IMG/VR virus record: IMGVR_UViG_3300037961_003042
Span: 1 to 63,013 of that record
Length of the DNA: 63,013 nt
Origin: a virus
Lineage: Duplodnaviria > Caudoviricetes
Strand: one strand, 5' to 3'
A program made the translations under genes and the position numbers. The notes beneath the pieces are model-generated. The model worked only from the letters and a program-made list of their open reading frames with translations. It had not been told where the DNA came from and did no database searches. Numbering within the stretch: position 1 is the stretch's first letter; each line of letters begins with the position of its first letter. Shown here in pieces: positions 7,485 through 54,456 of the stretch.

Positions 7485-8405
7485 ATGGCATACTTAACAG
7501 GTTATCAATATTACGAAAATTCAGGAAATATTCCGGAAGATGCAAACTGGGGTAGCTATCAATATGTTTCATTAGAAGATATAGTAAATAACTTTATGCT
7601 TATTTACAATGACAATCTGCAGTTAATAAACAATGTTAATAGATACCAGGTTCTATTCTTTGCTAAACGCGCTATACAAGAATTAAATTATGATGCGTTT
7701 AAAGAAATTAAAGTTTTAGAGCTTGATGTTTGTGATAGATTAAGATATGTATTACCACCCGACTATGTAAACTATGTTAGAATTTCTATGTATAAAGACG
7801 GGTTATTATCACCCTTGAGTGAAAACATACAGGTGAATTCAGCAAAAAGTTATTTGCAAGCACATGATTGTAAAATTCTATTTGATATAAATGGTAATAT
7901 ATTGGAGGCAGAATACTCTGCTTTAGATAGACAAAGAATTGCGGGAACAAAAAAATCTATTTATCTTGGCGAAGGTCAGTATAATGGAAGAATGGGTTAT
8001 TGTGTAGATGGTTGCTGGTATTTTGATTATCAAATCGGCGCAAGATTTGGATTGAATACTGAAACCGCCAACATAAACCCTACGTTTAGAATTGATAAAA
8101 AAGCAGGAGTAATCAATTTTAGCTCTGGTATGGCAAATCAACTATGTGTGCTAGAGTATGTTTCTGATGGAATGGAGAATGGAAATGATGCTGCGGTTAG
8201 TGTAAACAAATTATTTGAAGATTATATTTACTCCTATATAAAATATGCAATTCTAAATTCAAGACTAGGAGTACAAGAGTTTATAGTAAATAGAGCGAGA
8301 AAAGACAAATCAGCGCTTCTAAGAAATGCAAAAATTCGCCTAAGCGACATACATCCAGGTAGGCTTTTAATGAATCTTAGAGGCCGAGCAAAGTGGATTA
8401 AATGA
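7485..8405 (+). CDS. Second tail ring/tubular protein
   Basis: AKRAIQEL...LPPDYVNYVRIS...VLEYVSDG pattern typical of adaptor/ring proteins; position before nozzle. Confidence 0.55.
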   Translation: MAYLTGYQYYENSGNIPEDANWGSYQYVSLEDIVNNFMLIYNDNLQLINNVNRYQVLFFAKRAIQELNYDAFKEIKVLELDVCDRLRYVLPPDYVNYVRISMYKDGLLSPLSENIQVNSAKSYLQAHDCKILFDINGNILEAEYSALDRQRIAGTKKSIYLGEGQYNGRMGYCVDGCWYFDYQIGARFGLNTETANINPTFRIDKKAGVINFSSGMANQLCVLEYVSDGMENGNDAAVSVNKLFEDYIYSYIKYAILNSRLGVQEFIVNRARKDKSALLRNAKIRLSDIHPGRLLMNLRGRAKWIK

Positions 8406-16886: not shown

Positions 16887-19800
16887 ATGAATGAAGAAGC
16901 ATTACAGCAGATATATTCTTTAGCAGTTGAAGAAGGTTATACTGGAGATATGGCAGAATTTTACACGCTACTCCAAACAAACGGTGATGCTCTAAATACA
17001 GTTTATGATATTGCAAAAGATGAAGGATATAAAAACTCTCAAAAATCCTTTGAGGTATTACTAGGCTTAAAAAAAAAAGAAGAAAATTTTCCAGAGTTAT
17101 TTCCTTCCAAATATCAAAGTTCAAATTTACCTTCGGATTTAGATTTGAATATTAAAATTGATAATAAAGAAACATATTTCAAAATTAAGGATGATCCAGA
17201 GTTAAACCAAATAGCCATAAAAGATAATGCTTTCTTTGACAAAATAGATAAGGAGCTACAAAAAGATTACGGAAAAAAAGAAGAGTTAAAACCAGGTACT
17301 TTACTAATACCTCAAAGAGAAATTAATCCTGAGACGGGGCAAAAATTTTCAGATGCCACCCCTACATACATATCAAACTTAGTTTTACAAATGTCAGAGC
17401 TTCCGGAAAACGTAAAGCCTTTACTTAAAAAATATATAAACATAAGTCGAGATAAAAGTTATGATTCTCGAAAAGATGTCCCGGCAGTTCCAGGCAGCAC
17501 TCAACCTACTATGGTGGAAAGCCTTGTAGATCGAATTGAATTAATACGAAAGAATGCCCCTTATATGAATAAAGAGGAGCTTGCAAAGCTTATTAAAGAT
17601 AACCCCGAAGTAATAAAAGAATTTGATAGTATAGCAATGAGTGAGCTTGAAAAATTTACAGACATAACTCCGGAAACTTTTTACAAGTACAATAAGGATA
17701 ACCGCTCTGTTGAAACGCGTGAAAAGAAAGATGCTCCTCAAGAAAAATTAGAAATAGTTCAAGATTTATTTAGTGGTATCCAAGGGTTTGACTTAAATGA
17801 ACTAACTAATTACATTGATGAAGATGTGGTGTCTTATGAATCTGATCCACTAACTGATATACAGGAGGCGTTTATAGGCAGAAGTAGTGTGGAAATAGGA
17901 AAACGAAATCGAGTTATTCAGGCAATTCAAGATGGGAATTTAGATTTACTAGCAAAATATTCTAATCAAAATTATGAAGATGAAGATGATGCAGAAAGAA
18001 ATGCTTTGGCACTTGACATGGAAAAAGCAAGAGCTCTTGGAATGTATGTGGAAGACAAAGTACAGTTTATTAATGATCGCATTGCGACTCTTAAATTAAA
18101 TCCAGAAAAAAATAAAGAAGCGATTGATAAACTTACAGAAGATAGAAAAAATTTAGTAATAAATTTTGGTCAATTCAATCGTCAGAACTTACCGTTTTTA
18201 AACAACTATATGTATCAGAAAAAACAGAGACTTGCAGATGAATACGTTTCTGGAGATATGGGCTTGTATAATCCAGGTGATGTTTTGCACGGGGGATATG
18301 TGGGTGTTAGAGAAGTTTTAGAAGGCGGATATGGGGCGGCAGTAGATGTAACATCTATGGTTTTAGATAAGTTTGGGTTAGATCCCTTGGCAGAGGATTT
18401 ACGTATACATCGTAGTTTGAATAATTTATTGTGGACAGATAACTCTATATATTCGTACGCTTCGGGAAAGGTGGTGATGCATAATGGGAAAAAATATATA
18501 GTAACCCCAGAAGGTCAAGTGATAGATGAAGAACGAGAAGTGGACGTTGCTTTTTTTGGTGAGCAAGCAGGAATTGATATTAATGAAATACGAAATAAAG
18601 CTAGAACTTCTAAGAAAACAGAATCTACCGTAAGTTTGTATGGAACTTATGCCACAGGAGCAAATGTCCTGGGAAATTTGGTGGTTCAGATAGGAGGAAT
18701 GAAAGGAGTTGGAGCGGTTTTAAAAGGTGGGGGAAAGCTTGCGACTTCAATGGGCGTTAACACATTAAGCAAAACAGCAACCATGAGGGCTAATGCTATG
18801 ATTAGCACAGGGGCGGTAATTTATTCTACAACATACAACCAAGCGCTAGAAGAAGCTAGAAGTTTAGGTCTACCGGAACCAATGGCTCAAAAGTATGCTG
18901 ATGAAATAGCTACCACAACTAGTGTTGTAGGATCATTAGCCGCTGTAACTATTTCTCCGAACTTTGGCGCTCAACAATTATTCGCTAGAACATCACCAAA
19001 ACAAATAGCTAGATATTTAATTAAAAACAAAACCACCGACAACATCCCTGATAAAGTTTTACAGTTTTTAAAAGGCGCAGCCGTAGAGGGAACTTTTGAG
19101 GCTATACAGGAATCTACAGAATTATTTGCAGAAGATTATGCAAGAAGAAAAATTAATAAAGAACTGGGGGAAGAATTATTTAAACCTGTGTTTACTAAAA
19201 CAAGTGTTATAAACAACACTATTGCTGCTTTTGCCTCAGCCGGTTTACTTGGTGGAGCTGGCAGGGTAAATACATCTAGGGTTACTTTCTACAATAGACT
19301 AGGATCTAATCAAGAATTGTTTCAAAAATATATGAAGATGTATGTGGAGCAAGGATTAATTGATCAAATTGGTGCGGATAAAATTGTTAACGAAGTAAAG
19401 AACTATCATCAATACAAAAATAAATTACCAGAAAATTTAAGAAATAGTTCTGATGCCATCAAACTAACTAACTTGTTAGCAGAAAAAGCCAGATTACAAG
19501 ACTTATTGAAAACTCAAGATGAAGTTTTTAATAAAGATACTCGAACAAGAATAGAAGCGATTGACAACGAAGTCAAGCGTATATCAGATAAAGCTGCAGG
19601 TAAAAAGACATCACCTTCTCCAGAAATAAAAGAAGAACAAACCATTACAGATCAACAAGCCATTGACGCAATAGCAAAAGATAACGAAGGTAGAAAGGAA
19701 AGAGGTGAAGAATTAATAGGATTTACCGAGCAAGATATATCAAATAAAAAACAAGAACTTTTAAAACAACAACAAGATGCCAGTACGGAGCAGAGCGCAG

Positions 19801-22800
19801 TGGCGCAAACTAGCCAAGACCAATCCACAACTACTACGGAAGTGGCTGAAGGAGTACCCGGTCAAGTTCAGCAGCCTACCGGAGAGGCTGACACCCAAGC
19901 CGAAGGTACAGTCGACACGACAACGGAGACGGAAGTAACCCCTGAAGATGAATTAACTGCTGAAGTAGAAGCGGTGACCGAGCAAGAAGCCGAGCAAGAA
20001 CTAGATGAATTACTTAATGAAGCTGAAGCTAAAAATGAAAATGTTACGACTGTAGGCACACAAGGCAGAAATAAAAGTATATCCCGTAAGGCAAGCGCAC
20101 AAACAAAAGCTGAAGGACTCAATACTAAAACACCAGAGGGCAAAAGAAGATTCATGCAAATTAAAAGTGAAATCACACAGCTCTTCAATAAAAAAATGAG
20201 AACCCTTAAGAGAGCTGCTAATTTATTAGGTAAGATTTTACCGAATACTAAGATTGTTTTAGCAGAAACTAAAGCAGATTATGCCAGGTTAAGAGGTAAA
20301 AAAAGTAATTCAATAGGAGCTTTTAGAGTTACTAAAGATGGAAAGACTGCAATTTTTATTGATGTTAGCGATCTCAGCTATGACAAAGGCATAGAAACTC
20401 TTGTACACGAATTATTTCATGCAGTTTTATACAAAAAATTCGGCAGAAACAAAGAAAAAATTAGGAGAGTTACTGACAAGATGGTCAAAGAACTTCAAAA
20501 AACTTTAAAAAATTCTAAAGATCGAGAACTTGAGATTATAGGTGATCAATTGGTTAGGTTTTCTAAACAGTATTCAAGGGGGGAACAAACTGAAGAATTC
20601 TTGGCTGAAACTCTAGGTTTTCTTGCTGAAAGGTTTGATCGAGTTCGTAGAAATTCTAAAGCGTTGAAAGTTGTAGTTAATTTTGTAAACAAAATTAGTG
20701 ACCTTCTGGGTTTAGGTAAAGCAAAAAAAGAATTAGCCAAGGATCCTGACAGAGTATTAAGAGCTTTAGCTTTGGTCGCTAAAAAACTTCAGAGCGGTGA
20801 AGTATTACAGGATACAGACTTTGATATTATAAACGAGATAGAAGCAGAAGTAGATCAAGAAGGTACTGACGCCCCTATCGTTACAGGCGCAGTAGACTTT
20901 GTTACTGAAACAGATACAACTGCAGACGAAGATGTTACTGTTACAGTGCTTGAAGATGTTGAGGTAGATGAAGATGTTGAGGTAGATGAAACAACTACAC
21001 AGGATAGGGTTGTTGAAAAAAAGAAAAAGCCTACGACCACAGATGCTACATCAACTACGTTACTTAGAAAAATATCTACTGAAATTAAAAAAGCAATTCG
21101 AGAAGCAAAGAGTCAACAAAATAAAATAAAAAGAGAAGTTGCTTTAGCCATAAGGGAGGCAGCTAAACAAGGTACGCTGTCAGCAAAACAAGCGCTTGTG
21201 TTAGCAAAAAGAGCATTGACTTTAAATGTGGATAGTCCGTTAGCCGTTGAAAGATTTATTTTATACACAAAAAAAGCTCTTACAGATGCTGATAGTATTT
21301 TTAAATTAAAAACAGCTAACACATTCAGACAGCAATTAAAAAAGATTGGTAAAAGTAAAACCATAGATGCAGCTATTGCGGCAGCTGCAAAAAACTTTGC
21401 ACTCATAGATCCTATATATGTGGAAGATCTTGATTTGTATAATCAGTTAGCTCAAGAACTTGTAGATGGATCTAAATCAAGTAGGGTGTTAAAAGGTGAG
21501 TTGAAACAAAAACGAATTGCTGACCTTGCAAAGATAAATGCGTTTGCAGATAATCAATTGGAAAAAGAAAAAGCTGAAATACTCGCCACAATGAGAGATG
21601 AGTTTGAAGCCATGACCGGAATAGATCCAAAGGATATGACCTATGGTCAGATGATGGATTATTTAAACAAACAAGAAACCCCTAGCGTAAAAGACGAGTC
21701 AATTATTCGTAAAGCTGTAACAACCATGTTTAAAAAATATTCTGAAACCATTAAGCAAATGCTGTCAAGTGGTGTAGATGCAGCAACGGGAAACCCATTA
21801 GATTTAACTGCAGCTCAAAAATCTATTGTAAAAAGATTTATGGACATGGATTTGTCAGTAATGGGAATCAAAGATGTAATCAAAGCAGTTGATGCATTAA
21901 ATAGTTTTATTGTTAACAGAAACACTGGTGGCATGGAGACAGTAGTTAATAATAATACTGGAGCTTCTAACGTATCACAAATGGTAAAGGATAATAAAAC
22001 CGTAAAGCCGAGAAACAAATTCAAAGCATTATACGAAGGTGTAGTTATTCCTTATTTAAAACAAATTGCAACATTACCTATGACCTTGAAAACAATATTA
22101 GGTAGTTTAGATAATTATATAGATTTTCAAATTAAAAGTGGGCTTAGGGATTTTATTAGTGGTCAAGCAAAGGCTATAGTTAACACCAATAACATGGTAA
22201 AAGATTATGTAAAAAAGTTTGGAAAACTAAGACCAAACAATGAGGCATTTGATTCGACAAGAAATAATATAGAAAGAGGCTTATATGCTTTTTTAGTTAG
22301 AACTACTAGCGGAGATATAGATTCCAGTAAAAAAGAATTCAAAAGAAGATTAAGATTGGTTGAGCAGTCTATCGCAAAATACCAAAGAGGAAATAAAGAG
22401 CAGAAAGAAACAGCTGAAATTTTACAAAAGATATATGACAAGATTAAAAACGCTGAAAGCTCATCTGAAATAGAAAATGCTTTTGATCAGGTTAATAAAG
22501 ACGCAGTTGCATTCTGGCAAAATGAATGGGCTAAAGTATATCCAGAGCTTGCTCAAACAAGTTACAATATATATAACCAGATATTAGGCAATGATGTTAA
22601 CTATACACCGGATAAATTTTCAGTATTTGAAGCAGATGTAGAGGTTGATTTAGACAATGAAAGTGCGTTCGGATCTTTTTCAGGCACTTTGTTCAACAAG
22701 AAAGCCGGAGTGTTATTTGAATCTACTAAACCACAACAACTACCAGGCAACAGAGTAGTCAACTTTAATTTTGATTCTAATATGTCAAACTCTATGGAGG

Positions 22801-24206
22801 CTGCTCAAATGGACATACAAACATCTCCTGCTTATAATCAAATAAAAGGATTCGTTCAATCCCCAGAGCTTAATAAATTAATTCCAGATGAAAAGGTTAG
22901 AAAATTAGTTGTAGATAAAGTAGTAAGCTATATTAACAGCGCAAAAAAACAAAGATATTTACCTAAAGAAGAAGCAGGATTGGTGTCTAAAGGATTAGAT
23001 TTAATTGCAAACTTGGGTGTAGGTAGAGCTTTAATACAAATATTCCAGCCTGTAAAACAAGTATTGCCTGTTGCATTGAACACGATTATAAACTCGAAAG
23101 GAAATTTAGATATTACTTCTTTTACTAACATTCCTCTTCAAAAATGGATTGACTCTGTTGGCACATCTATAGCTATAAGAGGTGGTTTATCAAGCGCTGA
23201 TTTAGCAAAGCTTGAAAATTTTACAAACAGTGATCAATTTAATGAGTTAATTAAAGATCCCATAAGATTAATTAAAAAATTAAATACGTTAGGATTGGAA
23301 ATATTTTTAGTAAATCCCGATAAAGCAATTGCTAGAGTATCTTTTATTACATATTACAAACAAAAATTAAAAGAAAAAGGAGTTGATGTTAATGCTATTG
23401 ATTGGGAAACACATAAAGCAGACAAAGAAGCACTGGCATATGCTGAAGCTCAAGTTGATCTACAACAAAATATTTCTAGCGCTGATATGTTTGGTGAGTT
23501 TTTCAAGTCAGACAATGTATATAAAAAGAGATTCAGGCAATTAATACTTCCTTTTGCATCTTTTGCAATGAATTTAAAAACCAGGATATATACAGATGTA
23601 CCTGTGCTTTTTAGTAAGACCGCTAGTAAATCAGAAAAGCAAAGAGCTGCCCTGTCTATTGCCTCAGCAGGTGTAGAAATAGCTGCATTTCAAACTATCG
23701 GAGGATTAATAACCGCTATGATGTCTAAAATTGGATATGATGATGATGAGGAAAAAAGAAAAAAACGAATTAATAATATAATAAAAGGCAGAAAAGGAAA
23801 TATAGTTACTGAATTTTTAAATCCTGTTGCTCACCCAATTGTTGACCGCCTTATTTTAAAAGGCATTAATGAAACCATGAGCGCTATCACTGGAGATGAT
23901 GAGAAAATATTTTTTGATAGTGACACTAGTAAGCTACAAATTTCAGATGTTACCGGGCAGTTTGGTATTCCACTTACTCGAGGAAGTGAAATTATTGAAA
24001 TAGCTGAACTCGCATTTGGAGATGGAGTATTTACGGATCGTTTTGGAAATAAAAGAAGGATAAGCAAAGAGTCTCAAGAAAGATTAAAGACATCAGTAAT
24101 ACCTTCATTGTTATACAACCTAGGTTTATTACCAGCGGAACTTGGTACCCTGACAAGATACCAATTAAGAGAAGCTAAAAGCAAAAATACTAGGAAGGCT
24201 AATTAA
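16887..24206 (+). CDS. Giant internal virion/ejection protein with zincin (HExxH) domain
   Basis: 2439 aa; G/A-rich hydrophobic helices around aa 590-800; TLVHELFHAV...EEFLAE metalloprotease motif; acidic linkers. Confidence 0.65.
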   Translation: MNEEALQQIYSLAVEEGYTGDMAEFYTLLQTNGDALNTVYDIAKDEGYKNSQKSFEVLLGLKKKEENFPELFPSKYQSSNLPSDLDLNIKIDNKETYFKIKDDPELNQIAIKDNAFFDKIDKELQKDYGKKEELKPGTLLIPQREINPETGQKFSDATPTYISNLVLQMSELPENVKPLLKKYINISRDKSYDSRKDVPAVPGSTQPTMVESLVDRIELIRKNAPYMNKEELAKLIKDNPEVIKEFDSIAMSELEKFTDITPETFYKYNKDNRSVETREKKDAPQEKLEIVQDLFSGIQGFDLNELTNYIDEDVVSYESDPLTDIQEAFIGRSSVEIGKRNRVIQAIQDGNLDLLAKYSNQNYEDEDDAERNALALDMEKARALGMYVEDKVQFINDRIATLKLNPEKNKEAIDKLTEDRKNLVINFGQFNRQNLPFLNNYMYQKKQRLADEYVSGDMGLYNPGDVLHGGYVGVREVLEGGYGAAVDVTSMVLDKFGLDPLAEDLRIHRSLNNLLWTDNSIYSYASGKVVMHNGKKYIVTPEGQVIDEEREVDVAFFGEQAGIDINEIRNKARTSKKTESTVSLYGTYATGANVLGNLVVQIGGMKGVGAVLKGGGKLATSMGVNTLSKTATMRANAMISTGAVIYSTTYNQALEEARSLGLPEPMAQKYADEIATTTSVVGSLAAVTISPNFGAQQLFARTSPKQIARYLIKNKTTDNIPDKVLQFLKGAAVEGTFEAIQESTELFAEDYARRKINKELGEELFKPVFTKTSVINNTIAAFASAGLLGGAGRVNTSRVTFYNRLGSNQELFQKYMKMYVEQGLIDQIGADKIVNEVKNYHQYKNKLPENLRNSSDAIKLTNLLAEKARLQDLLKTQDEVFNKDTRTRIEAIDNEVKRISDKAAGKKTSPSPEIKEEQTITDQQAIDAIAKDNEGRKERGEELIGFTEQDISNKKQELLKQQQDASTEQSAVAQTSQDQSTTTTEVAEGVPGQVQQPTGEADTQAEGTVDTTTETEVTPEDELTAEVEAVTEQEAEQELDELLNEAEAKNENVTTVGTQGRNKSISRKASAQTKAEGLNTKTPEGKRRFMQIKSEITQLFNKKMRTLKRAANLLGKILPNTKIVLAETKADYARLRGKKSNSIGAFRVTKDGKTAIFIDVSDLSYDKGIETLVHELFHAVLYKKFGRNKEKIRRVTDKMVKELQKTLKNSKDRELEIIGDQLVRFSKQYSRGEQTEEFLAETLGFLAERFDRVRRNSKALKVVVNFVNKISDLLGLGKAKKELAKDPDRVLRALALVAKKLQSGEVLQDTDFDIINEIEAEVDQEGTDAPIVTGAVDFVTETDTTADEDVTVTVLEDVEVDEDVEVDETTTQDRVVEKKKKPTTTDATSTTLLRKISTEIKKAIREAKSQQNKIKREVALAIREAAKQGTLSAKQALVLAKRALTLNVDSPLAVERFILYTKKALTDADSIFKLKTANTFRQQLKKIGKSKTIDAAIAAAAKNFALIDPIYVEDLDLYNQLAQELVDGSKSSRVLKGELKQKRIADLAKINAFADNQLEKEKAEILATMRDEFEAMTGIDPKDMTYGQMMDYLNKQETPSVKDESIIRKAVTTMFKKYSETIKQMLSSGVDAATGNPLDLTAAQKSIVKRFMDMDLSVMGIKDVIKAVDALNSFIVNRNTGGMETVVNNNTGASNVSQMVKDNKTVKPRNKFKALYEGVVIPYLKQIATLPMTLKTILGSLDNYIDFQIKSGLRDFISGQAKAIVNTNNMVKDYVKKFGKLRPNNEAFDSTRNNIERGLYAFLVRTTSGDIDSSKKEFKRRLRLVEQSIAKYQRGNKEQKETAEILQKIYDKIKNAESSSEIENAFDQVNKDAVAFWQNEWAKVYPELAQTSYNIYNQILGNDVNYTPDKFSVFEADVEVDLDNESAFGSFSGTLFNKKAGVLFESTKPQQLPGNRVVNFNFDSNMSNSMEAAQMDIQTSPAYNQIKGFVQSPELNKLIPDEKVRKLVVDKVVSYINSAKKQRYLPKEEAGLVSKGLDLIANLGVGRALIQIFQPVKQVLPVALNTIINSKGNLDITSFTNIPLQKWIDSVGTSIAIRGGLSSADLAKLENFTNSDQFNELIKDPIRLIKKLNTLGLEIFLVNPDKAIARVSFITYYKQKLKEKGVDVNAIDWETHKADKEALAYAEAQVDLQQNISSADMFGEFFKSDNVYKKRFRQLILPFASFAMNLKTRIYTDVPVLFSKTASKSEKQRAALSIASAGVEIAAFQTIGGLITAMMSKIGYDDDEEKRKKRINNIIKGRKGNIVTEFLNPVAHPIVDRLILKGINETMSAITGDDEKIFFDSDTSKLQISDVTGQFGIPLTRGSEIIEIAELAFGDGVFTDRFGNKRRISKESQERLKTSVIPSLLYNLGLLPAELGTLTRYQLREAKSKNTRKAN

Positions 24207-41184: not shown

Positions 41185-42780
41185 ATGGAACAAGGATACA
41201 CGCCAAGGGAGTTACACTTTGACTCTGAGGGCAGAAACAAACTCATAAGCGGAATCGCTAAAATATCAAGAGCGGTTAAGTCAACTCTTGGCCCTAGAGG
41301 GCAGACAGTCTTAATAGAATCACGCACACATACACACGGAATCACAGTAACTAAGGACGGAGTTACGGTTGCCAAGTCAATTGACTTGTTAGATCCTGTG
41401 GAGAACTTAGCGGTGAAGATGATGAAGGAAGCTGCAGACCGTACAGCCACGTCAGCCGGAGACGGTACAACTACCGCCATAGTATTGACGGAAGCGTTAG
41501 TTGAAGCGGGTGAAAAATACCTAAATAAGTCGGTAAATCCGACGGTTGTGATACGTGAAATCAATAAACACACTTCACACGTAATAAAAAAGCTGGAGAA
41601 ACAAGCGAAAAAATTATCCAAGAAAAGATTGTTGGACGTTGCGACTATATCGTCGAACAATGACAAAGAGATTGGGAAAATAATATACGATACCTATAAT
41701 AAAGTAGGGCAAGACGGACTAGTCACGGTTGAGAACTCACAGAGTCATAATACATATAGTGAGGTTACAAAGGGGATACGCGTTGAAAGAGGATATACAT
41801 CGAACTTATTTGTGAACAATCAAAAGAAAGACGAGTGTGTGCTTGAAAACGTAAAGATACTTGTAGTTGATCAGGAGATAAATAACATTCTCAGTATTGA
41901 GAAGGTTTTGAAACCTATTATCAGTAACGGCGACAAACTGCTGATAATTGGAAATTGCCATAACAATGTCGTCAATACCCTAGCTGCAAATGTCGTTCGT
42001 AATGGCCTTAAGATATGTAATATCATGCCACCTCAGTTTGGTTACAAACAACATGAGTTGATGAGCGACATAGCACTAGCGGTTGGTGCCAAGTATTTCA
42101 GTGAGAAAACCGGTGATGATCTGTCATTGATTTCCACGGAGGATCTTGGGCACGCAGCCAAAGTAATTGTTGGTAGAGACAGTACGATCATTATAAGAGA
42201 TGATAAAGAGATTGAAGAGATACCACAAAGAGTTGATGAACTTTGGGAGCAACATAAGAATACGAAAATAAAATCGGAGAAAGATTTTATACTTCAACGT
42301 ATCGCTAGCCTCAGCGGAGGAATCGGAGTGATATACGTCGGCGGTAATTCAGATGTTGAACAAAAAGAAAAATTTGACCGCGTCGATGACGCGGTATGTG
42401 CAGTAAGATCTGCACTTGAAGAAGGAATTGTAGCAGGCGGAGGAGTGCCACTACTTAGAATATCTAAGGAAATTAATGAAGATGTTGAAAATGCAGAGGA
42501 AAAAGTTGCACTTCAAATATTAAAAGACGCATTAGCAGTTCCATGCAAACAGATATTGTTAAACGCAGGTGAGGAAGATGAAAGTATTACTTTACATATT
42601 CTTGATGATAAAAAAGGTTATGATGTAAAGAATCAAAAATTTGGTGATATGTATAAGTTGGGAGTGATTGATCCACTAAAGGTAACAAAAAATGCCTTGA
42701 TCAATGCAGTTTCTGTTGCAACAACCATACTTAGTACGAACGCTATCGTAACTCTGGCTAGAACATACGATAGTAAATAA
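41185..42780 (+). CDS. groEL: Chaperonin GroEL (phage-encoded)
   Basis: STLGPRG, VTKDGVTVAK, AGDGTTTA, EEGIVAGGG, GVIDPLKV; lacks the GGM tail. Confidence 0.97.
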   Translation: MEQGYTPRELHFDSEGRNKLISGIAKISRAVKSTLGPRGQTVLIESRTHTHGITVTKDGVTVAKSIDLLDPVENLAVKMMKEAADRTATSAGDGTTTAIVLTEALVEAGEKYLNKSVNPTVVIREINKHTSHVIKKLEKQAKKLSKKRLLDVATISSNNDKEIGKIIYDTYNKVGQDGLVTVENSQSHNTYSEVTKGIRVERGYTSNLFVNNQKKDECVLENVKILVVDQEINNILSIEKVLKPIISNGDKLLIIGNCHNNVVNTLAANVVRNGLKICNIMPPQFGYKQHELMSDIALAVGAKYFSEKTGDDLSLISTEDLGHAAKVIVGRDSTIIIRDDKEIEEIPQRVDELWEQHKNTKIKSEKDFILQRIASLSGGIGVIYVGGNSDVEQKEKFDRVDDAVCAVRSALEEGIVAGGGVPLLRISKEINEDVENAEEKVALQILKDALAVPCKQILLNAGEEDESITLHILDDKKGYDVKNQKFGDMYKLGVIDPLKVTKNALINAVSVATTILSTNAIVTLARTYDSK

Positions 42781-42798: not shown

Positions 42799-42930
42799 AT
42801 GCCAATTTATAACGAAATATTTGAGTCTTTTAGAGCAAATAATAAAAAGCTAGAAGAAGCAATAAAGCTTTTGGAAGAAAACGGATTTATTGTTTACGAT
42901 AAAGAAAAGAAATATGTATCCAGTAAATAA
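42799..42930 (+). CDS. 43-aa ORF between groEL and groES
   Basis: MPIYNEIFESFRANNKKLEEAIKLLEENGFIVYDKEKKYVSSK; read manually. Confidence 0.5.
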   Translation: MPIYNEIFESFRANNKKLEEAIKLLEENGFIVYDKEKKYVSSK

Positions 42931-43171
42931 ATATATTGTTGTTAGAGAAATAGTAGAAGAACACAAGACTGATTCAGGACTTCTATTATCATCGCAGGAC
43001 GTTGACACCTATAGGTACAAGAAAGGATTAGTGTTGAAAGTAGGTAACAATGCAGAGGTGATTAAAGAAAACGACTCTATATACTATGACAAAGCAGCAG
43101 GACATAAAATATTACTACAAGATGAACAGCTCACAATTATTCAGGAGCGTGATGTTGTAGTTGTTTTGTAG
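42914..43171 (+). CDS. groES: Co-chaperonin GroES
   Basis: MYPVNKYIVV...KTDSGLLLS...GLVLKVG...IIQERDVVVVL; ATG at 42914. Confidence 0.85.
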   Translation: MYPVNKYIVVREIVEEHKTDSGLLLSSQDVDTYRYKKGLVLKVGNNAEVIKENDSIYYDKAAGHKILLQDEQLTIIQERDVVVVL

Positions 43172-48180: not shown

Positions 48181-48188
48181 TATATTTG
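48181..48188 (+). promoter_or_regulatory. -7 element heading the envelope/lysis cassette
   Basis: TATATTTG. Confidence 0.55.
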
Positions 48189-48266
48189 CATTTATGAAAT
48201 ACATAACAACAACTACTTGGCATCCCGACTTAATCGTCGAATATAAATATGTAGATACTAAGTAAA

Positions 48267-48584
48267 ATGGCTCAAAAAATTAGCGAAGACACAAACGTAA
48301 CATTAGACCTAAAAACAATAGGAATAATTATGGGGGGTGTCATAGCTATAGCCACTACTTATTTTACTATCTCTAGCGGTGTAGCTGCTAACACAGAAGA
48401 TATAAATGCCTTAAAAAACAACAGCGTTAACCCTGTAGAATTTCAGTATAAAGATGAGCTGGTGCGCTCGAGCATTCTTCGTATAGAAGAAAAAACTGAC
48501 GTATTGAATGAGGATGTGCAAGAGGTAAAAGATCAGCTTCAGAAAATAGACGAAAGGCTCTACCAAATTAGTAAACAAAGATGA
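48267..48584 (+). CDS. Single-TM plus coiled-coil protein (i-spanin/holin-like)
   Basis: TM IGIIMGGVIAIATTYFTI followed by a heptad-rich C-terminus. Confidence 0.55.
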   Translation: MAQKISEDTNVTLDLKTIGIIMGGVIAIATTYFTISSGVAANTEDINALKNNSVNPVEFQYKDELVRSSILRIEEKTDVLNEDVQEVKDQLQKIDERLYQISKQR

Positions 48585-48904
48585 GATGTGCGATAATTGC
48601 CTTTTTCCTGACATGTGCAAGTTTTGCTCAAACTGATATAGAGGTTATACAGTTTAGCGCTTCTTTTGTAAAAGATAAAGAAATATCTATGAAGGGTTTT
48701 AAATACGAAACTAAAACTTTGTATATGTCTCAAAACCCTGATATGTTTACCGATCATGATGTCAAATACATTCCCACTTTAATTTTATTATATAACGGCG
48801 AGGAATATTTTAGGATAGAATCAGGAATTTCTTTGACTTTGCCTGAAGACTCCAAAGCTCAATTAGAAGAAAAAATAGATGAAATTATAGCTAGTAAATT
48901 TTAA
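48581..48904 (+). CDS. Secreted thioredoxin-fold protein lacking CxxC
   Basis: Signal peptide ASFA|Q; VIQFSASF in place of FxAxWC; DVKYIPTLILLYNGEE cis-Pro motif. Confidence 0.65.
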   Translation: MRCAIIAFFLTCASFAQTDIEVIQFSASFVKDKEISMKGFKYETKTLYMSQNPDMFTDHDVKYIPTLILLYNGEEYFRIESGISLTLPEDSKAQLEEKIDEIIASKF

Positions 48905-48914
48905 ACACTTAAGA

Positions 48915-50099
48915 ATGAAAAAATTAATCACATTTTTATTGGTACTATGCGCTACATTAAACGTAAGCGCTCAAGAAAAAGACAACTTATTCAAAAAAAT
49001 ATACAAAGAACTATTTAAGTATAGCACTGTATATATTGCGGGTGACATTGACAATCCAAAGGAAAACCCAAAAGATTATTTTGTAAGAACAAATCCTAAT
49101 GGTAATTTGTATTCTGCGCCTGTTGTAGTTGACGGAACAGAATACTATGACTTTGATTACAGGTATGGCTTTGGAATACGCAAACTTGCAAGATTCGATT
49201 ATGAAATAAAAGGCAAGCATTACTATGATGGAACCGAAAACAACATTGGCCTGTCCGCTACAAACTCACCGGTTAATGGATTGGAGTATACGTTTCATTT
49301 TGAAAAAGAAAGATCAAGAGATGAGGTGTTTACTAACCACAGATATTTTCTAAAACACAGTGGGCAGTATCACGTTGTAAAGCTCGAAAGCCGCGAACAA
49401 GGAAGGGTGGATTTTAACTATAAATCTGCAGAGGTTAGAGCAAAACTACCAATTGGTAAAAAATTTAGTGTATCAGCCGGCGCAATCTTTCGTACGCATG
49501 AGCGCCCATACGGATATAATCCTGTTGAAATATGGCTAAACGAAACTAATTCTGATGGTCAGATTATTAACCCTTGGTACACATTAGGCTTTCAATATGG
49601 ATATGATGATATTTATTACACTCAAGAAGATCAGTTTGGAAATGAAATATCTGATTGGTACTGGATAAATCCTGAAGGAGAAGTTGTTGCCCATACGGAT
49701 TTAGAATTTAGAGACACGGTTTTTGCTGACCTCATGAACAGATATAATCATGAAATTTGGGATGATTTAGATGCATTTGGTGTGGTAAGCCCAATTGTCG
49801 GTTTTGACTTCTATCATTACAAGCGTAACTTTTGGCTTCATGCTTTTGGATCTTATCTGCTTCCCTATCACAAATATGTAAGAGGCGATGAAGATTTTAG
49901 TTATTTAAATAGAAATAATTGGGGTTTAGGGGGATTAAGACAAAACGCTGAATTAGAACAATGGGAAGATTGGCAAGCCGGAATTTCATTTGGATGGAAA
50001 ATATCAAAAAGCATTGGGGTGTTTGTTGAAGGCGAGTACACAAGGTTTTGGGATTCTGAAATATATCAATCATCAATCGGTCTTAACTTTAGATTGTAA
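48915..50099 (+). CDS. Putative outer-membrane beta-barrel protein
   Basis: Signal peptide NVSA|Q; about 11-12 amphipathic strands; aromatic-rich; C-terminal beta-signal-like SSIGLNFRL. Confidence 0.65.
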   Translation: MKKLITFLLVLCATLNVSAQEKDNLFKKIYKELFKYSTVYIAGDIDNPKENPKDYFVRTNPNGNLYSAPVVVDGTEYYDFDYRYGFGIRKLARFDYEIKGKHYYDGTENNIGLSATNSPVNGLEYTFHFEKERSRDEVFTNHRYFLKHSGQYHVVKLESREQGRVDFNYKSAEVRAKLPIGKKFSVSAGAIFRTHERPYGYNPVEIWLNETNSDGQIINPWYTLGFQYGYDDIYYTQEDQFGNEISDWYWINPEGEVVAHTDLEFRDTVFADLMNRYNHEIWDDLDAFGVVSPIVGFDFYHYKRNFWLHAFGSYLLPYHKYVRGDEDFSYLNRNNWGLGGLRQNAELEQWEDWQAGISFGWKISKSIGVFVEGEYTRFWDSEIYQSSIGLNFRL

Positions 50100-50329
50100 T
50101 GCACAATATTCCTAATGATAAGCTGTTGCACTTCTTTTGGGGTGGCGTCACAGCATTCCCTTTAATATATTTATTCTCAATTTACGGATTTATTTTTTCC
50201 GTAACTTTGTATGGATTAAAGGAAATTATTTACGATTGGTGGATGGGTAAAGGAAATCCGGAGTTTATGGATTTTATTTACTCTAGTATACCAGCTGTAT
50301 TTTATATAATATTAAAATTAAATTTATGA
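50099..50329 (+). CDS. Small membrane protein (VanZ/DUF2279-like)
   Basis: NDKLLHF...GLKEIIYD...EFMDFI with 2-3 TM segments. Confidence 0.6.
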   Translation: MHNIPNDKLLHFFWGGVTAFPLIYLFSIYGFIFSVTLYGLKEIIYDWWMGKGNPEFMDFIYSSIPAVFYIILKLNL

Positions 50330-50787
50330 ATAGAATCAGTGATCACATAACATACGCAGAAGCTATACACTCAAATACTGCTAAAAGAAAAAAAATTGAC
50401 AACACGCCAAATCCTACTCAAATAGCCGCAATGGCAACAGTAGCGGAAATGGTGTTTGAGCCTTTAAGATCTTGGGCTGGTGGGCCTATAAAAGTAAATT
50501 CTTTTTTTAGGTCGCCATCTTTGAATGAGGCTATTGGCGGGGTAAGTTCCAGCCAGCATTGTAAAGGTCAAGCAATGGATTTGGATGATGTATATGGATA
50601 TAAGTCTAACGCAGAGATGTTTATGTATATACGTGAAAACTTAGATTTTGACCAATTAATATGGGAGTTTGGAACGGATATGAATCCCAATTGGATTCAC
50701 GTGTCATACGTTTCCAAAGATGAAAACAGAAACAGATGCTTAAAGGCATATAAAGAGGATGGTAAAACAAAGTATAAAGTAATATAA
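50326..50787 (+). CDS. Endolysin, peptidase M15 family
   Basis: VNSFFRS, SQHCKGQAMD, WIHVS zinc ligands. Confidence 0.85.
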   Translation: MNRISDHITYAEAIHSNTAKRKKIDNTPNPTQIAAMATVAEMVFEPLRSWAGGPIKVNSFFRSPSLNEAIGGVSSSQHCKGQAMDLDDVYGYKSNAEMFMYIRENLDFDQLIWEFGTDMNPNWIHVSYVSKDENRNRCLKAYKEDGKTKYKVI

Positions 50788-51216
50788 ATGAAAGTAATTA
50801 AGGGGATAATATGTGTCTTGTTTTTTTGGTTATTGGCTGGTTGTAAATCGTACACTCCCGCCCCTAAAAACACTATTAAAGTTTTAGCAGTTACTCATGA
50901 AGGTGATACCATTCAGCTTGATGTTAACTCACTAAGGCCTAGAGTATATCAAAATATTTACCACACTTATCCTTACTATCATAGTTACTGGAGACCATCT
51001 CCTTATTATGGAACATGGGGTTGGGGTAATTATTATTATACAAGGCCAAGGCCAGCGGTAACTGTACCTAATATACCAAATGTAACATTACCAAACACTA
51101 AACCTACAGGCACATATAATAAACCAGCTGATGTAGGAACAGGATCCTCATTGAGTCCTAGCTTGGCTAGACCATCAAGTAACAACAGTAGTAATAGTAA
51201 TAAAAAAATAAATTAA
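50788..51216 (+). CDS. Lipoprotein (o-spanin candidate)
   Basis: Lipobox LLAG-C19; Y/W-rich segment then P/S/N-rich disordered tail. Confidence 0.6.
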   Translation: MKVIKGIICVLFFWLLAGCKSYTPAPKNTIKVLAVTHEGDTIQLDVNSLRPRVYQNIYHTYPYYHSYWRPSPYYGTWGWGNYYYTRPRPAVTVPNIPNVTLPNTKPTGTYNKPADVGTGSSLSPSLARPSSNNSSNSNKKIN

Positions 51217-51217
51217 T

Positions 51218-51676
51218 ATGAGCTCAAAAAAACCATTCAAAGACACAACTGTTGGGCAGCTTTTATTTGGCGCAGCTTCTGTAATTAATCCAACACTAGG
51301 AAATGTATTACAAGGGGTTACATCGCCAAAAGAAGCAATAGAGGCTATAACTAAATCTGAAGCCCCGGCTGACGATAAAATTAAATTACAACAATTAATC
51401 TTCGATCAGCAGAATAAAGAAATAGAAGCAATAACTTCAAGGTGGAAAGCAGACTCGATGTCTGATTCATGGATGTCGAAAAATGTACGACCACTAGTAT
51501 TAATATGGTGTATAGTAGTTTTTTCATTTGCTGGAATATTAGACAGTGTTGAAACTATACCATTTACAATACATGATAATTGGAATTCAACATTTGAGAA
51601 TGTGATGATGGCGGTCGTCTTAGCCTATTTCGGAGGAAGGTCGAGCGAAAAAGCAATGAGTATATTTAAAAAGTAA
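51218..51676 (+). CDS. Holin (GTA 3TM-holin-like)
   Basis: RWKADSMSDSWMSKNVRP...TM...YFGGRSSEK. Confidence 0.75.
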   Translation: MSSKKPFKDTTVGQLLFGAASVINPTLGNVLQGVTSPKEAIEAITKSEAPADDKIKLQQLIFDQQNKEIEAITSRWKADSMSDSWMSKNVRPLVLIWCIVVFSFAGILDSVETIPFTIHDNWNSTFENVMMAVVLAYFGGRSSEKAMSIFKK

Positions 51677-51810
51677 TGGCAAGAAAAATAATAAATCCAA
51701 TTGAGTATAAGAAAGCTAGAAAAAAAAGACCTGGCATACACGCTAAGACTAAAACTAGTAAATTAAAAAGTAGTAAATTGTATAAGAAATTATATACAGG
51801 ACAAGGATAA
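51676..51810 (+). CDS. 44-aa very basic protein (not in ORF track)
   Basis: MARKIINPIEYKKARKKRPGIHAKTKTSKLKSSKLYKKLYTGQG. Confidence 0.6.
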   Translation: MARKIINPIEYKKARKKRPGIHAKTKTSKLKSSKLYKKLYTGQG

Positions 51811-51968
51811 TGGCAAAAAAAGGAAGAACAAAAGGAAACAAAATATGTCCAGCTGGAATTGCCTGGGCAAAAAGAACATTCGATAGATACCCTTCAGCAT
51901 ACGCAAACATGGCTGCAAGTAAATATTGTAAAGATCCTAATTATGCTAAGAAAACAAAAAGAAAATAA
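51810..51968 (+). CDS. 52-aa basic protein, DUF5872 N-half-like (not in ORF track)
   Basis: ICPAGIAWAKRTFDRYPSAYANMAASKYCK. Confidence 0.6.
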   Translation: MAKKGRTKGNKICPAGIAWAKRTFDRYPSAYANMAASKYCKDPNYAKKTKRK

Positions 51969-51989
51969 ATAAACAACAACAGTGAAATT

Positions 51990-52458
51990 ATGAAAAAATT
52001 AAAATTAAGCGCTATAGAAAAACCTAAACTATTTTACAAAAAACCTAAAGATGTAAAAGAATATTTAGCGGCAATGAAAAAACAAAACGATAGTCTGAGG
52101 AGTTTACCCGTAAATGATCCATATCATTTACCAACTTTTGAAGATTCGCCAGAGGGTAGAAAAAAAAGAGATAAATTTTATACCCCTTCACCAGATAATA
52201 AAAAGCTTAAAAATATTCAGCAGCTAGGAAAAAAATTAAGAAAAAAATATTTATAACAATTAAAAATTAGAAATCATGATGAGACCACCGATGCTTAATG
52301 CAATCCAAAAAGTAAAACTGGCAATGGGTAAAAAATTGCCTAAATTGTCTATGGAATATCCTAAATTAAATAAAGGGTTTGAGGCTTTGCCTGTAAAAGC
52401 TCAAGAAAACATAATGAAAAATAAACAACCTAAATTGGGTGGTAGAAGAAAGAGGTAA
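51990..52458 (+). other. Two K/P-rich small ORFs (51990-52256, 52276-52458)
   Basis: ORF track; repeated KPKL/PKL. Confidence 0.55.
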
Positions 52459-52823
52459 TGGGTTTTAGCTTAAAAAACATTTATGAAGTTTTCGGACACA
52501 ATAAAGAGTTCTCCAATGGGGATAGAATTGTTGTGGAAAAAAAAATGTCTAAAAATGTTTTAGGACAAATAAATCCTAACGGCGTTATTGAAATTAACAA
52601 AGATGCAACGCCAGCAAATAAACGTAGAGCTGTAAAGCACGAGCAAGTACACCTTGACCAAATTAGATTGGGGTTGCTTCATTTCGATCATAATAATTAT
52701 TATTATAGAGAAAGCATCACGTCTCCAATACAGCGTATACCAAGTAGTAAAATTAATACCTATGACAGAACTCTGCCATGGGAAATACAAGCGCATAATG
52801 GGGGAATTAAAAAAATGGGTTAA
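52458..52823 (+). CDS. Small zincin-like metalloprotease
   Basis: GQINPNGVIEIN...VKHEQVHLDQ...LPWEIQAH. Confidence 0.65.
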   Translation: MGFSLKNIYEVFGHNKEFSNGDRIVVEKKMSKNVLGQINPNGVIEINKDATPANKRRAVKHEQVHLDQIRLGLLHFDHNNYYYRESITSPIQRIPSSKINTYDRTLPWEIQAHNGGIKKMG

Positions 52824-53037
52824 ACAAAAATGGGTTCGTATTGGCACTGATGGTAAAATCAAGGGGCCTTGCGGTACGTCTAAAAATAAAAAGAACCCGG
52901 ATAGATGTTTGCCATTAGCGAAAGCAAGAAGATTAAGTAAAAAACAATTAGCAGCAACAGCTAAGAAAAAAAAGAGACAAGGCAAAAAACGTCAGTTTGT
53001 TTCTAATACTAGAGCTGCAAGAGTAAGAAACGCATAA
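52798..53037 (+). CDS. Basic protein, DUF5872 C-half-like
   Basis: MGELKKWVKQKWVRIG...PCG...RCLP; ATG at 52798. Confidence 0.6.
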   Translation: MGELKKWVKQKWVRIGTDGKIKGPCGTSKNKKNPDRCLPLAKARRLSKKQLAATAKKKKRQGKKRQFVSNTRAARVRNA

Positions 53038-53038
53038 T

Positions 53039-53329
53039 ATGGCTAGTAAAAAAAACATGCCCTGCAATAAAGTAAGGCCGTCGACAAGACCAGGTAAAAA
53101 GAAAATGGTAAAAGCGTGTGAGGGTGGTAGAGAAAAACTAATTCACTTTGGAGCCAAAGGTTATGGACATAACTATTCTGCAGCAGCAAGAAAAAGCTTC
53201 AGGGCTAGACATAAATGCGGAACAGCAAAGTCAAAACTAACAGCTAGATACTGGGCGTGTAAAAAATTATGGGCCGGAAAAGGCGGTAGCACCAAGTCAA
53301 GCCCTAAAAGCAGACAAGGAAAATATTAG
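53039..53329 (+). CDS. Basic protein (DUF6321/DUF5754-like)
   Basis: KKKMVK...IHFGAKGY...RKSFRARHKC...TARYWAC. Confidence 0.65.
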   Translation: MASKKNMPCNKVRPSTRPGKKKMVKACEGGREKLIHFGAKGYGHNYSAAARKSFRARHKCGTAKSKLTARYWACKKLWAGKGGSTKSSPKSRQGKY

Positions 53330-53370: not shown

Positions 53371-53910
53371 ATGGCGATTATACCTAACTCACAAAAATTA
53401 CATACAGTATCATCTACCGTGGATACGACTGATAGGGGATCAGCAGAATTTCAATCTCAAAGAGAAGTCTATACAATGCAAGACGTTATTGATACTGTTT
53501 CTGCAGGCAGCAGTTCAACAGATTTAAAAAATTTGACAGTGACACTCTCAGCGGCTCAACTGCTCAGCTTAAATGGAGGTGCAGAAATTCAGCTTATTCC
53601 GGCACCAGGTGCAAATAAAGTAATAGTAGTGGAAAATGTTGTTCGGTTTTTAGATTTTAATTCAGTAGCATATAATTTTGCAGGAGCTTTAGGTCAAATT
53701 GTTCGATTAAAACAAGGCGCTAATACGGGAACTAATTTACCTAACAATTATTTAAATGCAGCAGCGGATAATTTGGCATCAGGTAGCGGTGGGTTAAACC
53801 CTTCAGTTAATACAAGTGTTAGTATAGAATCAACTTCTGGAATAACAGTATCGCAAGGAGATTCTCCTCTAAAGTTTTTCTTTTTGTACAGAGAGGTAAG
53901 TTTAACGTAA
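53371..53910 (+). CDS. Virion decoration/fibre protein, paralog 1
   Basis: Shared N-terminal anchor MAIIP..QK.HT...REVYTMQD. Confidence 0.6.
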   Translation: MAIIPNSQKLHTVSSTVDTTDRGSAEFQSQREVYTMQDVIDTVSAGSSSTDLKNLTVTLSAAQLLSLNGGAEIQLIPAPGANKVIVVENVVRFLDFNSVAYNFAGALGQIVRLKQGANTGTNLPNNYLNAAADNLASGSGGLNPSVNTSVSIESTSGITVSQGDSPLKFFFLYREVSLT

Positions 53911-53928
53911 TATAAAAATAAATAAATC

Positions 53929-54456
53929 ATGGCAGTAATACCAAACGGACAGAAATTTCATACAGTATCATCTACTGTAGACACAACTGACAGAGGATCT
54001 TCAGAGCTTCAATCTCAAAGAGAAGTCTATACAATGCAAGACGTTATTGATACAGTTGGTGGAACAGACTTAAAACAGACAACAGTAACATTATCAGCTG
54101 CTCAGATGCTTACTTTTAATGGAGGTGGAGAAGTTGAGATTCTTCCGGCACCAGGTGCCAATAAAATGTATGCTAGTGTTGAAGCTATGATGTTTGTAGA
54201 TTTCAATTCGGTAGTATATGATTTTGCAGGAGCTTTAGGTCAAGTTGTTCAATGGAAACAAGGGGCTTCTACAGGTTTTAGTTTAAACTTCGGAGTTTTA
54301 AATAGTGGAGCAGATGCTTTGCAAGATTTTAAATCAATAAATACAACAGCTTCATTTAATTCAAGTATTAGTATACAATCAACTGCTGGAGTTACAGTAA
54401 CGCAAGGAGATTCTCCTGTAAAGTTTTCAATTATTTATAGAGAAATAACATTTTAA
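53929..54456 (+). CDS. Virion decoration/fibre protein, paralog 2
   Basis: Full-length paralog of 53371-53910. Confidence 0.6.
   Translation: MAVIPNGQKFHTVSSTVDTTDRGSSELQSQREVYTMQDVIDTVGGTDLKQTTVTLSAAQMLTFNGGGEVEILPAPGANKMYASVEAMMFVDFNSVVYDFAGALGQVVQWKQGASTGFSLNFGVLNSGADALQDFKSINTTASFNSSISIQSTAGVTVTQGDSPVKFSIIYREITF

Follow-up and report, generated by a model that had tools for sequence, protein, structure and literature searches.

We analyzed the 63,013-base viral record IMGVR_UViG_3300037961_003042 (Caudoviricetes) over its full length, referred to here as the window; CheckV estimates the completeness of this IMG/VR entry at 100%. Within its lysis cassette lie three adjacent genes that recur together across phage loci. 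They encode CC, a transmembrane/coiled-coil protein predicted to reside in the inner membrane; S107, a secreted thioredoxin-fold protein that lacks the CxxC motif; and a secreted protein of 394 amino acids whose predicted structure indicates an outer-membrane beta-barrel (here called the barrel). We tentatively favor, short of calling it probable, the reading that this trio is an envelope-spanning lysis device replacing the canonical spanins, with an outer-membrane protein (OMP) in the o-spanin role; in this reading we infer both the binding among the three proteins and their function. The three genes are as follows.

48267 to 48584, plus strand: CC, 105-aa transmembrane/coiled-coil protein (g105); core gene 1
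48581 to 48904, plus strand: S107, 107-aa secreted thioredoxin-fold protein without CxxC (g107); core gene 2
48915 to 50099, plus strand: predicted outer-membrane beta-barrel, 394 aa, secreted; core gene 3

Conservation and distribution of the three-gene module

With the window barrel and two of its distant relatives we collected 100 viral loci, and iterative hidden Markov models (HMMs) were built for each cassette protein; counts out of 101 include the window locus. CC was detected in 84/101 loci and S107 in 83/101. Both genes stood beside the barrel in every viral locus with at least 1 kb of upstream and at least 3.2 kb of downstream sequence (57/57). Among the 100 collected loci, the 18 without a partner were all cut by a contig end, and the other 25 showed the trio despite short flanks. 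Two gene orders were observed: the CC-S107 pair precedes the barrel in 26 loci and follows it in 57. The two genes of the pair overlapped or were separated by at most 10 nt in 79 of 82 loci. The trio was kept as barrel identity fell from 89% to about 30%. An independent collection of contigs binned into metagenome-assembled genomes (MAGs) held the full module in 8 of 12 cases and CC in 9; of the remaining three contigs, two were cut within the barrel match and one had only about 0.9 kb after the barrel. The barrel is far more conserved than its partners: in a clade with the second gene order, it is 70 to 78% identical to that of the window, compared to 41 to 47% for CC, and S107 is undetectable by BLAST.

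Lysis genes accompany the module. Of the 52 loci with at least 3 kb on both sides, 41 carried in their flanks a gene of the same M15 endolysin or holin family as in the window, and in several clades the module directly abuts a holin or an endolysin gene. An earlier, sequence-only reading of this DNA had made its proposal depend on linkage of barrel homologues to the thioredoxin-like gene and to lysis genes, and both linkages are found. Carrier contigs extend from about 60 kb up to 91 to 216 kb; more than one phage backbone thus carries the module. As judged from gene content, the core is the trio CC, S107, and barrel. A lipoprotein and a 76-aa hydrophobic protein, also encoded in the window cassette, are variable extras rather than core components, because a lipobox open reading frame (ORF) of any family was found inside the cassette in 20 of the 83 complete-module loci (and none in 63/83, by our own heuristic) and the 76-aa protein family was present in 13/101 loci. 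The multicomponent envelope device of the sequence-only reading thus holds in its conserved three-gene synteny and is narrower than the seven genes first proposed, since the lipoprotein and the 76-aa protein vary.

The barrel belongs to a large family. We recovered 2370 clusters at 90% identity (E ≤ 0.001, among 4300 candidates), with 257 representatives at 50% identity, 35 of them at E ≤ 1e-30; the thioredoxin-like family of S107 comprises 2819 clusters at 90% identity. No source searched gave an informative name for the barrel family. In a language-model atlas, the nearest barrel clusters were 100% viral, and those neighbors that had names were weakly scoring OMP families. When 401 genomes of a Flavobacteriaceae-labeled family were searched with a profile, the barrel was found in only one (1/401), the MAG that had served as the search center. 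Scanning 185,579 species genomes with a pattern returned 12 loci, all on MAG contigs whose labels contradict one another and include archaea; because of this inconsistency, the 12 MAG-binned carriers are probably mis-binned phage contigs. In the cultured-phage collection there was no blastn match for the cassette and no tblastn match for the barrel, for its distant relatives P0181 and P0152, or for CC. Near-identical DNA was present in sequencing runs of nine studies (seven marine-labeled, one freshwater, and one without an organism label); two of the nine studies each include a run flagged as a possible source. The barrel family looks virus-only, and a large, apparently virus-only family of predicted outer-membrane proteins is thereby defined.

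Predicted architecture of the three proteins

The barrel had been proposed on the basis of alternating amphipathic strands. It carries a signal peptide for Sec export, and its AlphaFold2 model (34-sequence alignment; predicted local distance difference test [pLDDT], 81.5; predicted template-modeling score [pTM], 0.69) points to a barrel rather than a soluble protein, with about 14 long strands, with which the eight strands listed earlier coincide, and helical inserts at residues 196 to 230 and 252 to 287. All 50 matches listed by Foldseek against the PDB were membrane beta-barrels, alone or as part of a complex, and most were outer-membrane proteins of bacteria (NanC, OmpT, BamA, EspP, and others). 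Because the TM-scores of these matches were only 0.15 to 0.27, they indicate a fold class, the outer-membrane beta-barrel, rather than a family, and no family is assigned. The best match in BFVD was an unnamed viral protein of 342 aa (TM, 0.71/0.81; 23% identity). At the sequence level, the barrel had no Pfam or PHROG match, Ail/Lom and porin families included, and a search of PDB sequences with the barrel profile gave zero matches at E ≤ 1. As for the aromatic C-terminal beta-signal of OMPs, the window barrel ends in Leu, and among 82 full-length relatives 32 have a terminal Phe; 61 of 82 barrels have no Cys after residue 40. Assuming a periplasmic N terminus and that each long strand crosses the membrane, strand parity would place the most conserved 12-mer (residues 86 to 97, at the end of strand 2) and the turn that follows it (91 to 121) on the periplasmic face, and the variable, gap-rich segments 47 to 80 and 316 to 351 on the outside. 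The two helical inserts, which strand parity would also place on the outside, are moderately conserved.

Superinfection exclusion or receptor masking would also suit a barrel at the cell surface whose outward inserts are partly conserved; in this reading, the barrel blocks competitor adsorption or DNA entry, or stops progeny from sticking to debris, with S107 as its chaperone and CC as an anchor or blocker. Phage-encoded OMPs exist, and the BFVD matches to the barrel include phage proteins named porins or OMPs; secreted proteins of unknown function that carry Gln directly after the signal-peptidase site (the Q-rule) have been reported from phages of Bacteroidota, with a suggested role in modifying the outer membrane (PMC10367356). 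The module is moreover accessory, being absent from the nearest deposited relative of the window phage, MW202828.1. However, the absence of an integrase, together with the failure to find the family in the cellular genomes searched, makes lysogenic conversion unlikely, and the module lies constantly within lysis cassettes across different backbones. In addition, barrel identity of 72 to 89% among the 120 best clusters is unlike that of surface proteins engaged in an arms race, and the most conserved barrel motif falls on the putative periplasmic face. We regard exclusion as an unlikely role.

S107 is Cys-free and Sec-exported, with a signal peptide of the signal-peptidase-I type. Its AlphaFold2 model (pLDDT, 83.6) has the element order b-a-b-a-b-b-a and gave 174 matches in the PDB at E ≤ 1e-3, of which the top 50 were almost all thioredoxins, with TM-scores of about 0.5 to 0.6. 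The window copy reaches only E = 0.046 against Pfam Thioredoxin (PF00085); four of six tested homologues exceed the curated cut-off of that family. CxxC was found in none of 74 distinct members, the motif position reading W-N-x-x-N or similar, and the invariant residues are the thioredoxin cis-Pro position and a Gly. Of the 72 complete members, 71 have Phe at one of the two final positions. These data agree with the original description of a secreted thioredoxin fold without CxxC, and they make the S107 family a recurrent non-redox use of this fold. S107 was also considered as a lipoprotein o-spanin and ruled out, since it has no conserved lipobox Cys.

The window copy of CC has a single N-terminal hydrophobic segment and a helical C-terminal part with a tail of about 65 aa, as expected from its initial description as a transmembrane/coiled-coil protein; family matches are weak (Pfam DUF7365 [coiled-coil], E = 0.0046; phrog_1296 ["holin"], E = 7e-5). 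In most clades CC is 91 to 105 aa long and comprises about 16 N-terminal residues, one transmembrane segment, a proline-containing linker, a helix of about 35 to 45 residues whose pattern we ourselves read from the alignment as heptad-like, and a C-terminal end that is conserved; past the transmembrane segment, the tail has a median length of 60 aa. Lys plus Arg residues average 2.3 in the 15 residues before the transmembrane segment and 1.3 after it, and 68 of 72 members have no Cys. In one distant clade (L087, L089, L091, L093, L095, L096, L099, and L101), a soluble N-terminal extension of about 100 aa precedes the transmembrane segment, which argues for an N-in/C-out orientation of CC. An apparent resemblance of the extension to an MshEN-like domain was not borne out by Pfam (only weak DUF4388 matches, E of 0.014 to 0.031). 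At L087 (7413 to 8632), a heme-NO-binding gene (HNOB, PF07700, 2.3e-45) lies directly upstream of the long CC gene and is a possible sensory input to the module.

These features of CC bear on a further role, lysis-timing control with a logic like that of T4 lysis inhibition. CC would be holin- or antiholin-like, S107 would bind its tail, and the barrel would let in or sense a signal from outside the cell or from the periplasm. Consistent with this, CC members weakly match PHROGs with small holin or holin/anti-holin annotations (phrog_1296 in 3/28, best E of 7e-5; phrog_10340 in 1/28), a CC paralogue directly precedes the endolysin in L057, and CC and S107 are, by their sequence layout, translationally coupled. 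The cytoplasmic N-terminal CC domain of one clade and the H-NOX (HNOB) gene at L087 hint at signal input. The PHROG matches are, however, weak and composition driven, and the commonest of them, phrog_1009, carries no function. A separate, well-supported holin is present in 52/101 loci, and no part of the module is similar to T4 T, RI, or RIII by sequence or by fold. A barrel is not known to act in such a circuit, and no precedent was found in the lysis literature searched. Timing control appears quite unlikely to us.

Other cassette genes, the phage, and its host

The remaining features of the cassette are as follows.

48181 to 48188, plus strand: candidate -7 promoter motif TATATTTG, in the 93-nt gap ahead of the cassette; chance level
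50099 to 50329, plus strand: hydrophobic small protein, 76 aa; clade specific, not core
50326 to 50787, plus strand: Peptidase M15 endolysin (PF08291, 9.9e-15; phrog_894, 7.7e-26)
50788 to 51216, plus strand: lipoprotein g142, 142 aa, lipobox LLAGC, Pro/Tyr-rich mature part; not core
51218 to 51676, plus strand: holin (phrog_3427, 2.1e-18)

All eight ORFs of this region exist at the coordinates stated beforehand, and they are tightly packed, with 4-nt overlaps at 48581 to 48584 and 50326 to 50329 and 1-nt overlaps at 50099 and 51676. The M15 endolysin was correctly named: the match to PF08291 (Peptidase_M15_3) scores 55.1 bits against a cut-off of 23.2, and phrog_894 is annotated "endolysin." Likewise, the holin is upheld by its PHROG match and by tblastn, which matched 11 phage records, including Vibrio phage genes annotated as holins that adjoin an endolysin; its match to Pfam GTA_holin_3TM falls short of the cut-off of that family. 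In contrast, the VanZ-like label (PF04892) of the 76-aa protein is unsupported, since a Pfam scan at E ≤ 1 gave no family and PHROGs gave none either. Subthreshold VanZ matches (16 bits versus a cut-off of 30.1) occurred only in small proteins of two other loci.

The proposed -7 promoter is also unsupported. The motif TATATTTG is present and fits TAnnTTTG, the Bacteroidota -7 consensus, but this pattern occurs 112 times in the window compared to 100.7 ± 9.4 expected, and of 71 distinct loci, 12 have it upstream of the module, with a background of 11%. Because its frequency is at chance and related loci show no enrichment, TATATTTG is not evidence of a promoter. A scan for sigma-70 promoters and terminators gave nothing above shuffled sequences. 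Three RNA-labeled runs (two of them only guessed to be RNA) yielded 18 short pieces, mostly from the endolysin/holin part and 16/18 at 90 to 95% likeness; contigs of this kind cannot show transcription.

The lipoprotein call for g142 was sound: it carries the lipobox LLAGC and is, by our heuristic, the sole credible lipoprotein ORF in the 63-kb record, possibly serving as an o-spanin-like accessory. A plain spanin might accordingly be formed here by CC as i-spanin and g142 as o-spanin, leaving the barrel and S107 as an unrelated pair, for example, a porin or nutrient channel and its folding helper. The gene lies between those of the endolysin and holin, and the mature part of g142 is proline rich and appears, by composition, to be of low complexity, as the spanin census of 2018 describes for lambda Rz1 (PMC6139136). 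In L031, L035, and L037, the gene of a lipoprotein homologue directly precedes and overlaps that of CC. Nevertheless, the g142 family was found in just 8 loci, and lipobox ORFs of any family in the 20/83 noted above, whereas CC is always accompanied by both S107 and the barrel. Pfam gave no porin match for the barrel, a late-expressed channel would bring no obvious benefit to a cell about to lyse, and the linkage of three genes in two gene orders opposes independent functions. We consider this arrangement very unlikely.

Other genes adjoin the module in particular clades. A second, unrelated lipoprotein family adjoins the barrel in two very divergent clades (L045, 6202 to 6762; L087, 6759 to 7409; L091, 6301 to 6876; and relatives; 8 distinct members). 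Its members carry acidic residues directly after the lipobox Cys, presumably resembling the surface-lipoprotein export signal of Bacteroidota. In the L058-L076 clade (for example, L060, 6661 to 7209), an additional secreted protein of about 180 aa is encoded between S107 and the endolysin, with a signal peptide, Gln after the cleavage site, and no Pfam family (L060 and L058 tested); a 173-aa lipoprotein at L077, also without a Pfam family, appears to be kin to it through a shared short motif. On the phage contig of L045 (91 to 113 kb), a staphylococcal-nuclease-like gene (PF00565, 8.9e-6; 7832 to 8239) directly follows S107, and an ORF at the same position in L048 (6886 to 7290) encodes a protein with a near-identical N terminus.

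Directly after the holin of the window comes a run of tiny Lys/Arg-rich ORFs (51676 to 53329; 44, 52, 88, 60, 121, and 96 aa), several of which are 94 to 100% identical in relatives with more diverged lysis proteins. It is followed by tandem paralogues of 179 and 175 aa (53371 to 53910 and 53929 to 54456) with near-identical N-terminal halves and diverged C-terminal halves; in related loci, BLAST homologues of the 179-aa gene sit where a tail-fiber HMM also matches. Genes for a portal protein, for structural proteins of capsid type, for a large terminase, and for a primase/helicase are also present in the record, as is one for a GroEL-like chaperonin (41185 to 42780; phrog_5725, 9e-134). The chaperonin gene is followed by a 93-aa ORF (42890 to 43171) that may be a co-chaperonin; in the related genome MW202828.1, groEL and a 10-kDa chaperonin are annotated as neighbors. 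A 2439-aa ORF within the structural block (16887 to 24206) had no PHROG match at 1e-5.

The large terminase is 72% identical to that of MW202828.1, an uncultured freshwater podovirus genome, and about 45% identical to that of Flavobacterium phage vB_FspP_elemo; it also matches those of Cellulophaga, Tenacibaculum, and Maribacter phages at less than 60% identity (91 records in all). In MW202828.1 (L114, 15061 to 16129), the place of the trio is taken by an unannotated 150-aa ORF with multiple transmembrane segments and a 207-aa protein directly before the M15 endolysin; the 207-aa protein has an N-terminal transmembrane segment and a C-terminal half that, judged by eye, appears beta-rich. Because the terminase resembles those of flavobacterial phages, the host is probably a marine Flavobacteriia/Bacteroidota bacterium. 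Signal-peptide sequences lend independent support to Bacteroidota: as the sequence-only reading had noted, the mature parts of both secreted proteins are predicted to begin with Gln (74/74 distinct S107 N termini and 66/84 barrel N termini), which fits the Q-rule described for Bacteroidetes (PMC5837995). Profiles of tyrosine (PF00589) and serine (PF00239) integrases gave zero matches across the 63-kb record, in line with the earlier observation that no integrase is present, so the phage is apparently virulent.

A candidate lysis role and comparison with known systems

The three proteins are predicted to occupy the inner membrane, the periplasm, and the outer membrane. Given these three compartments, the evolutionary linkage of the genes, their lysis-gene context, and the lack of an integrase, an envelope-spanning complex acting in the last step of lysis would be the simplest reading of the module. 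The holin and M15 endolysin would first remove the membrane potential and the cell wall. CC would take the part of the i-spanin, and the barrel, inserted by the beta-barrel assembly machinery (BAM) of the host, would take that of the o-spanin instead of a lipoprotein. S107 would serve either as an adaptor between CC and the barrel or as a dedicated periplasmic chaperone for the barrel, and the CC-S107-barrel complex would then destabilize or fuse the outer membrane. Barrel residues 86 to 97, periplasmic by strand parity, are a candidate contact site.

With no lipobox ORF in 63 of 83 complete-module cassettes, candidates for canonical spanins appear to be scarce there. In the 2018 census, about 13% of phages with Gram-negative hosts, including Bacteroides and Croceibacter phages, have no identifiable spanin, and it is raised there, without an example, that "an OMP could act as an o-spanin" (PMC6139136). 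For flavobacterial phages from the North Sea, the sections available of the report mention spanin candidates only for Ingeline, Nekkels, and Harreka (PMC8776804). Put in its most specific form, the proposal would be a third kind of outer-membrane-breaching lysis system, made of a type-II inner-membrane coiled-coil protein, a Cys-free thioredoxin-fold adaptor, and a BAM-inserted barrel, which would be the first "OMP-type o-spanin"; among marine phages of Bacteroidota without canonical spanins, the system would be widespread. This stronger version is doubtful in our estimation.

Several observations weigh against a spanin-like role. The function of the module is argued mainly by guilt by association. 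The barrel and S107 are absent from MW202828.1, the closest deposited phage genome by terminase, so the module is dispensable for that backbone. With a median of 60 aa, CC has a periplasmic tail far shorter than lambda Rz, one that could hardly span the periplasm alone, and the periplasmic cysteines typical of two-component spanins are mostly missing from CC (68/72) and from the barrels (61/82). In L045 and some other loci, a lipoprotein and an additional transmembrane/coiled-coil protein form a possible canonical spanin pair, which would make the trio redundant there. The moderately conserved outward inserts of the barrel (196 to 230 and 252 to 287) are unexplained by a purely periplasmic role, and the weak PHROG matches of CC to small "holin" or function-less transmembrane proteins suggest that it may be a holin-like regulator. 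Complex prediction with alignments for the barrel (residues 20 to 394), the CC tail (38 to 105), and mature S107 scored 0.00 in both runs, a result that weighs neither for nor against binding.

The module offers a concrete and abundant candidate for the way in which Bacteroidota phages pass the outer membrane; if one of the rival readings holds instead, it would still be an undescribed envelope system of lytic marine phages. Full-text literature searches, confined to the articles themselves, turned up no description of a lysis module containing a barrel or a thioredoxin among the papers listed. The nearest known systems are the two-component spanins (lambda Rz/Rz1 and T4 PseT.3/PseT.2), which are needed to disrupt the outer membrane and whose two parts contact each other by their C termini. 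Like them, the module is located in the lysis cassette, has tightly spaced or overlapping genes, and pairs an inner-membrane partner that carries an N-terminal transmembrane segment and a periplasmic coiled coil with a partner that, here by prediction, is anchored in the outer membrane. CC has this i-spanin architecture, albeit with a short tail and a topology that we infer. Unlike in those systems, the gene after CC encodes a soluble secreted thioredoxin-fold protein in place of a lipoprotein, a beta-barrel of 394 aa would be the partner in the outer membrane, and three parts are conserved rather than two. The adjacent lipobox lipoprotein by which an o-spanin is recognized is lacking, as S107 has no conserved lipobox Cys and the barrel is not a lipoprotein. 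Periplasmic Cys residues are almost absent from the module, and the CC tail is only about 60 aa; according to the census, about 96% of known two-component spanin pairs have periplasmic Cys for intermolecular disulfides (PMC6139136). Since it departs from them in both the lipoprotein and the cysteines, the module lies outside the known spanin families, and its proteins have no sequence similarity to these families in PHROGs or Pfam.

The disruptin of phiKT (gp28; bioRxiv 10.1101/515445) is comparable in that the module, too, would be an alternative third lysis step in phages without spanins; gp28 is called a cationic antimicrobial peptide in that preprint, whereas the module consists of three exported folded proteins. 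Compared to the thioredoxin family (PF00085) and the Cys-less chaperones of thioredoxin fold, S107 keeps the order of the fold, with both the conserved cis-Pro and the active-site strand in their usual places. It differs in that CxxC is replaced in all members (74/74), in being exported and virus encoded, and in its conserved C-terminal Phe; a chaperone role for S107 is hypothetical. Lom and the Lc/NmpC porins are phage-encoded outer-membrane proteins of temperate phages; the barrel gene, too, would be a phage gene for an outer-membrane beta-barrel. In contrast to these, the barrel matches no Ail/Lom or porin family of Pfam, comes from a phage without an integrase, is encoded in the lysis cassette with two fixed partners, and looks virus-only. 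Taken together, the folds of the components are known, and the trio, the apparently virus-only barrel family, and its location in lysis cassettes appear to be undescribed.

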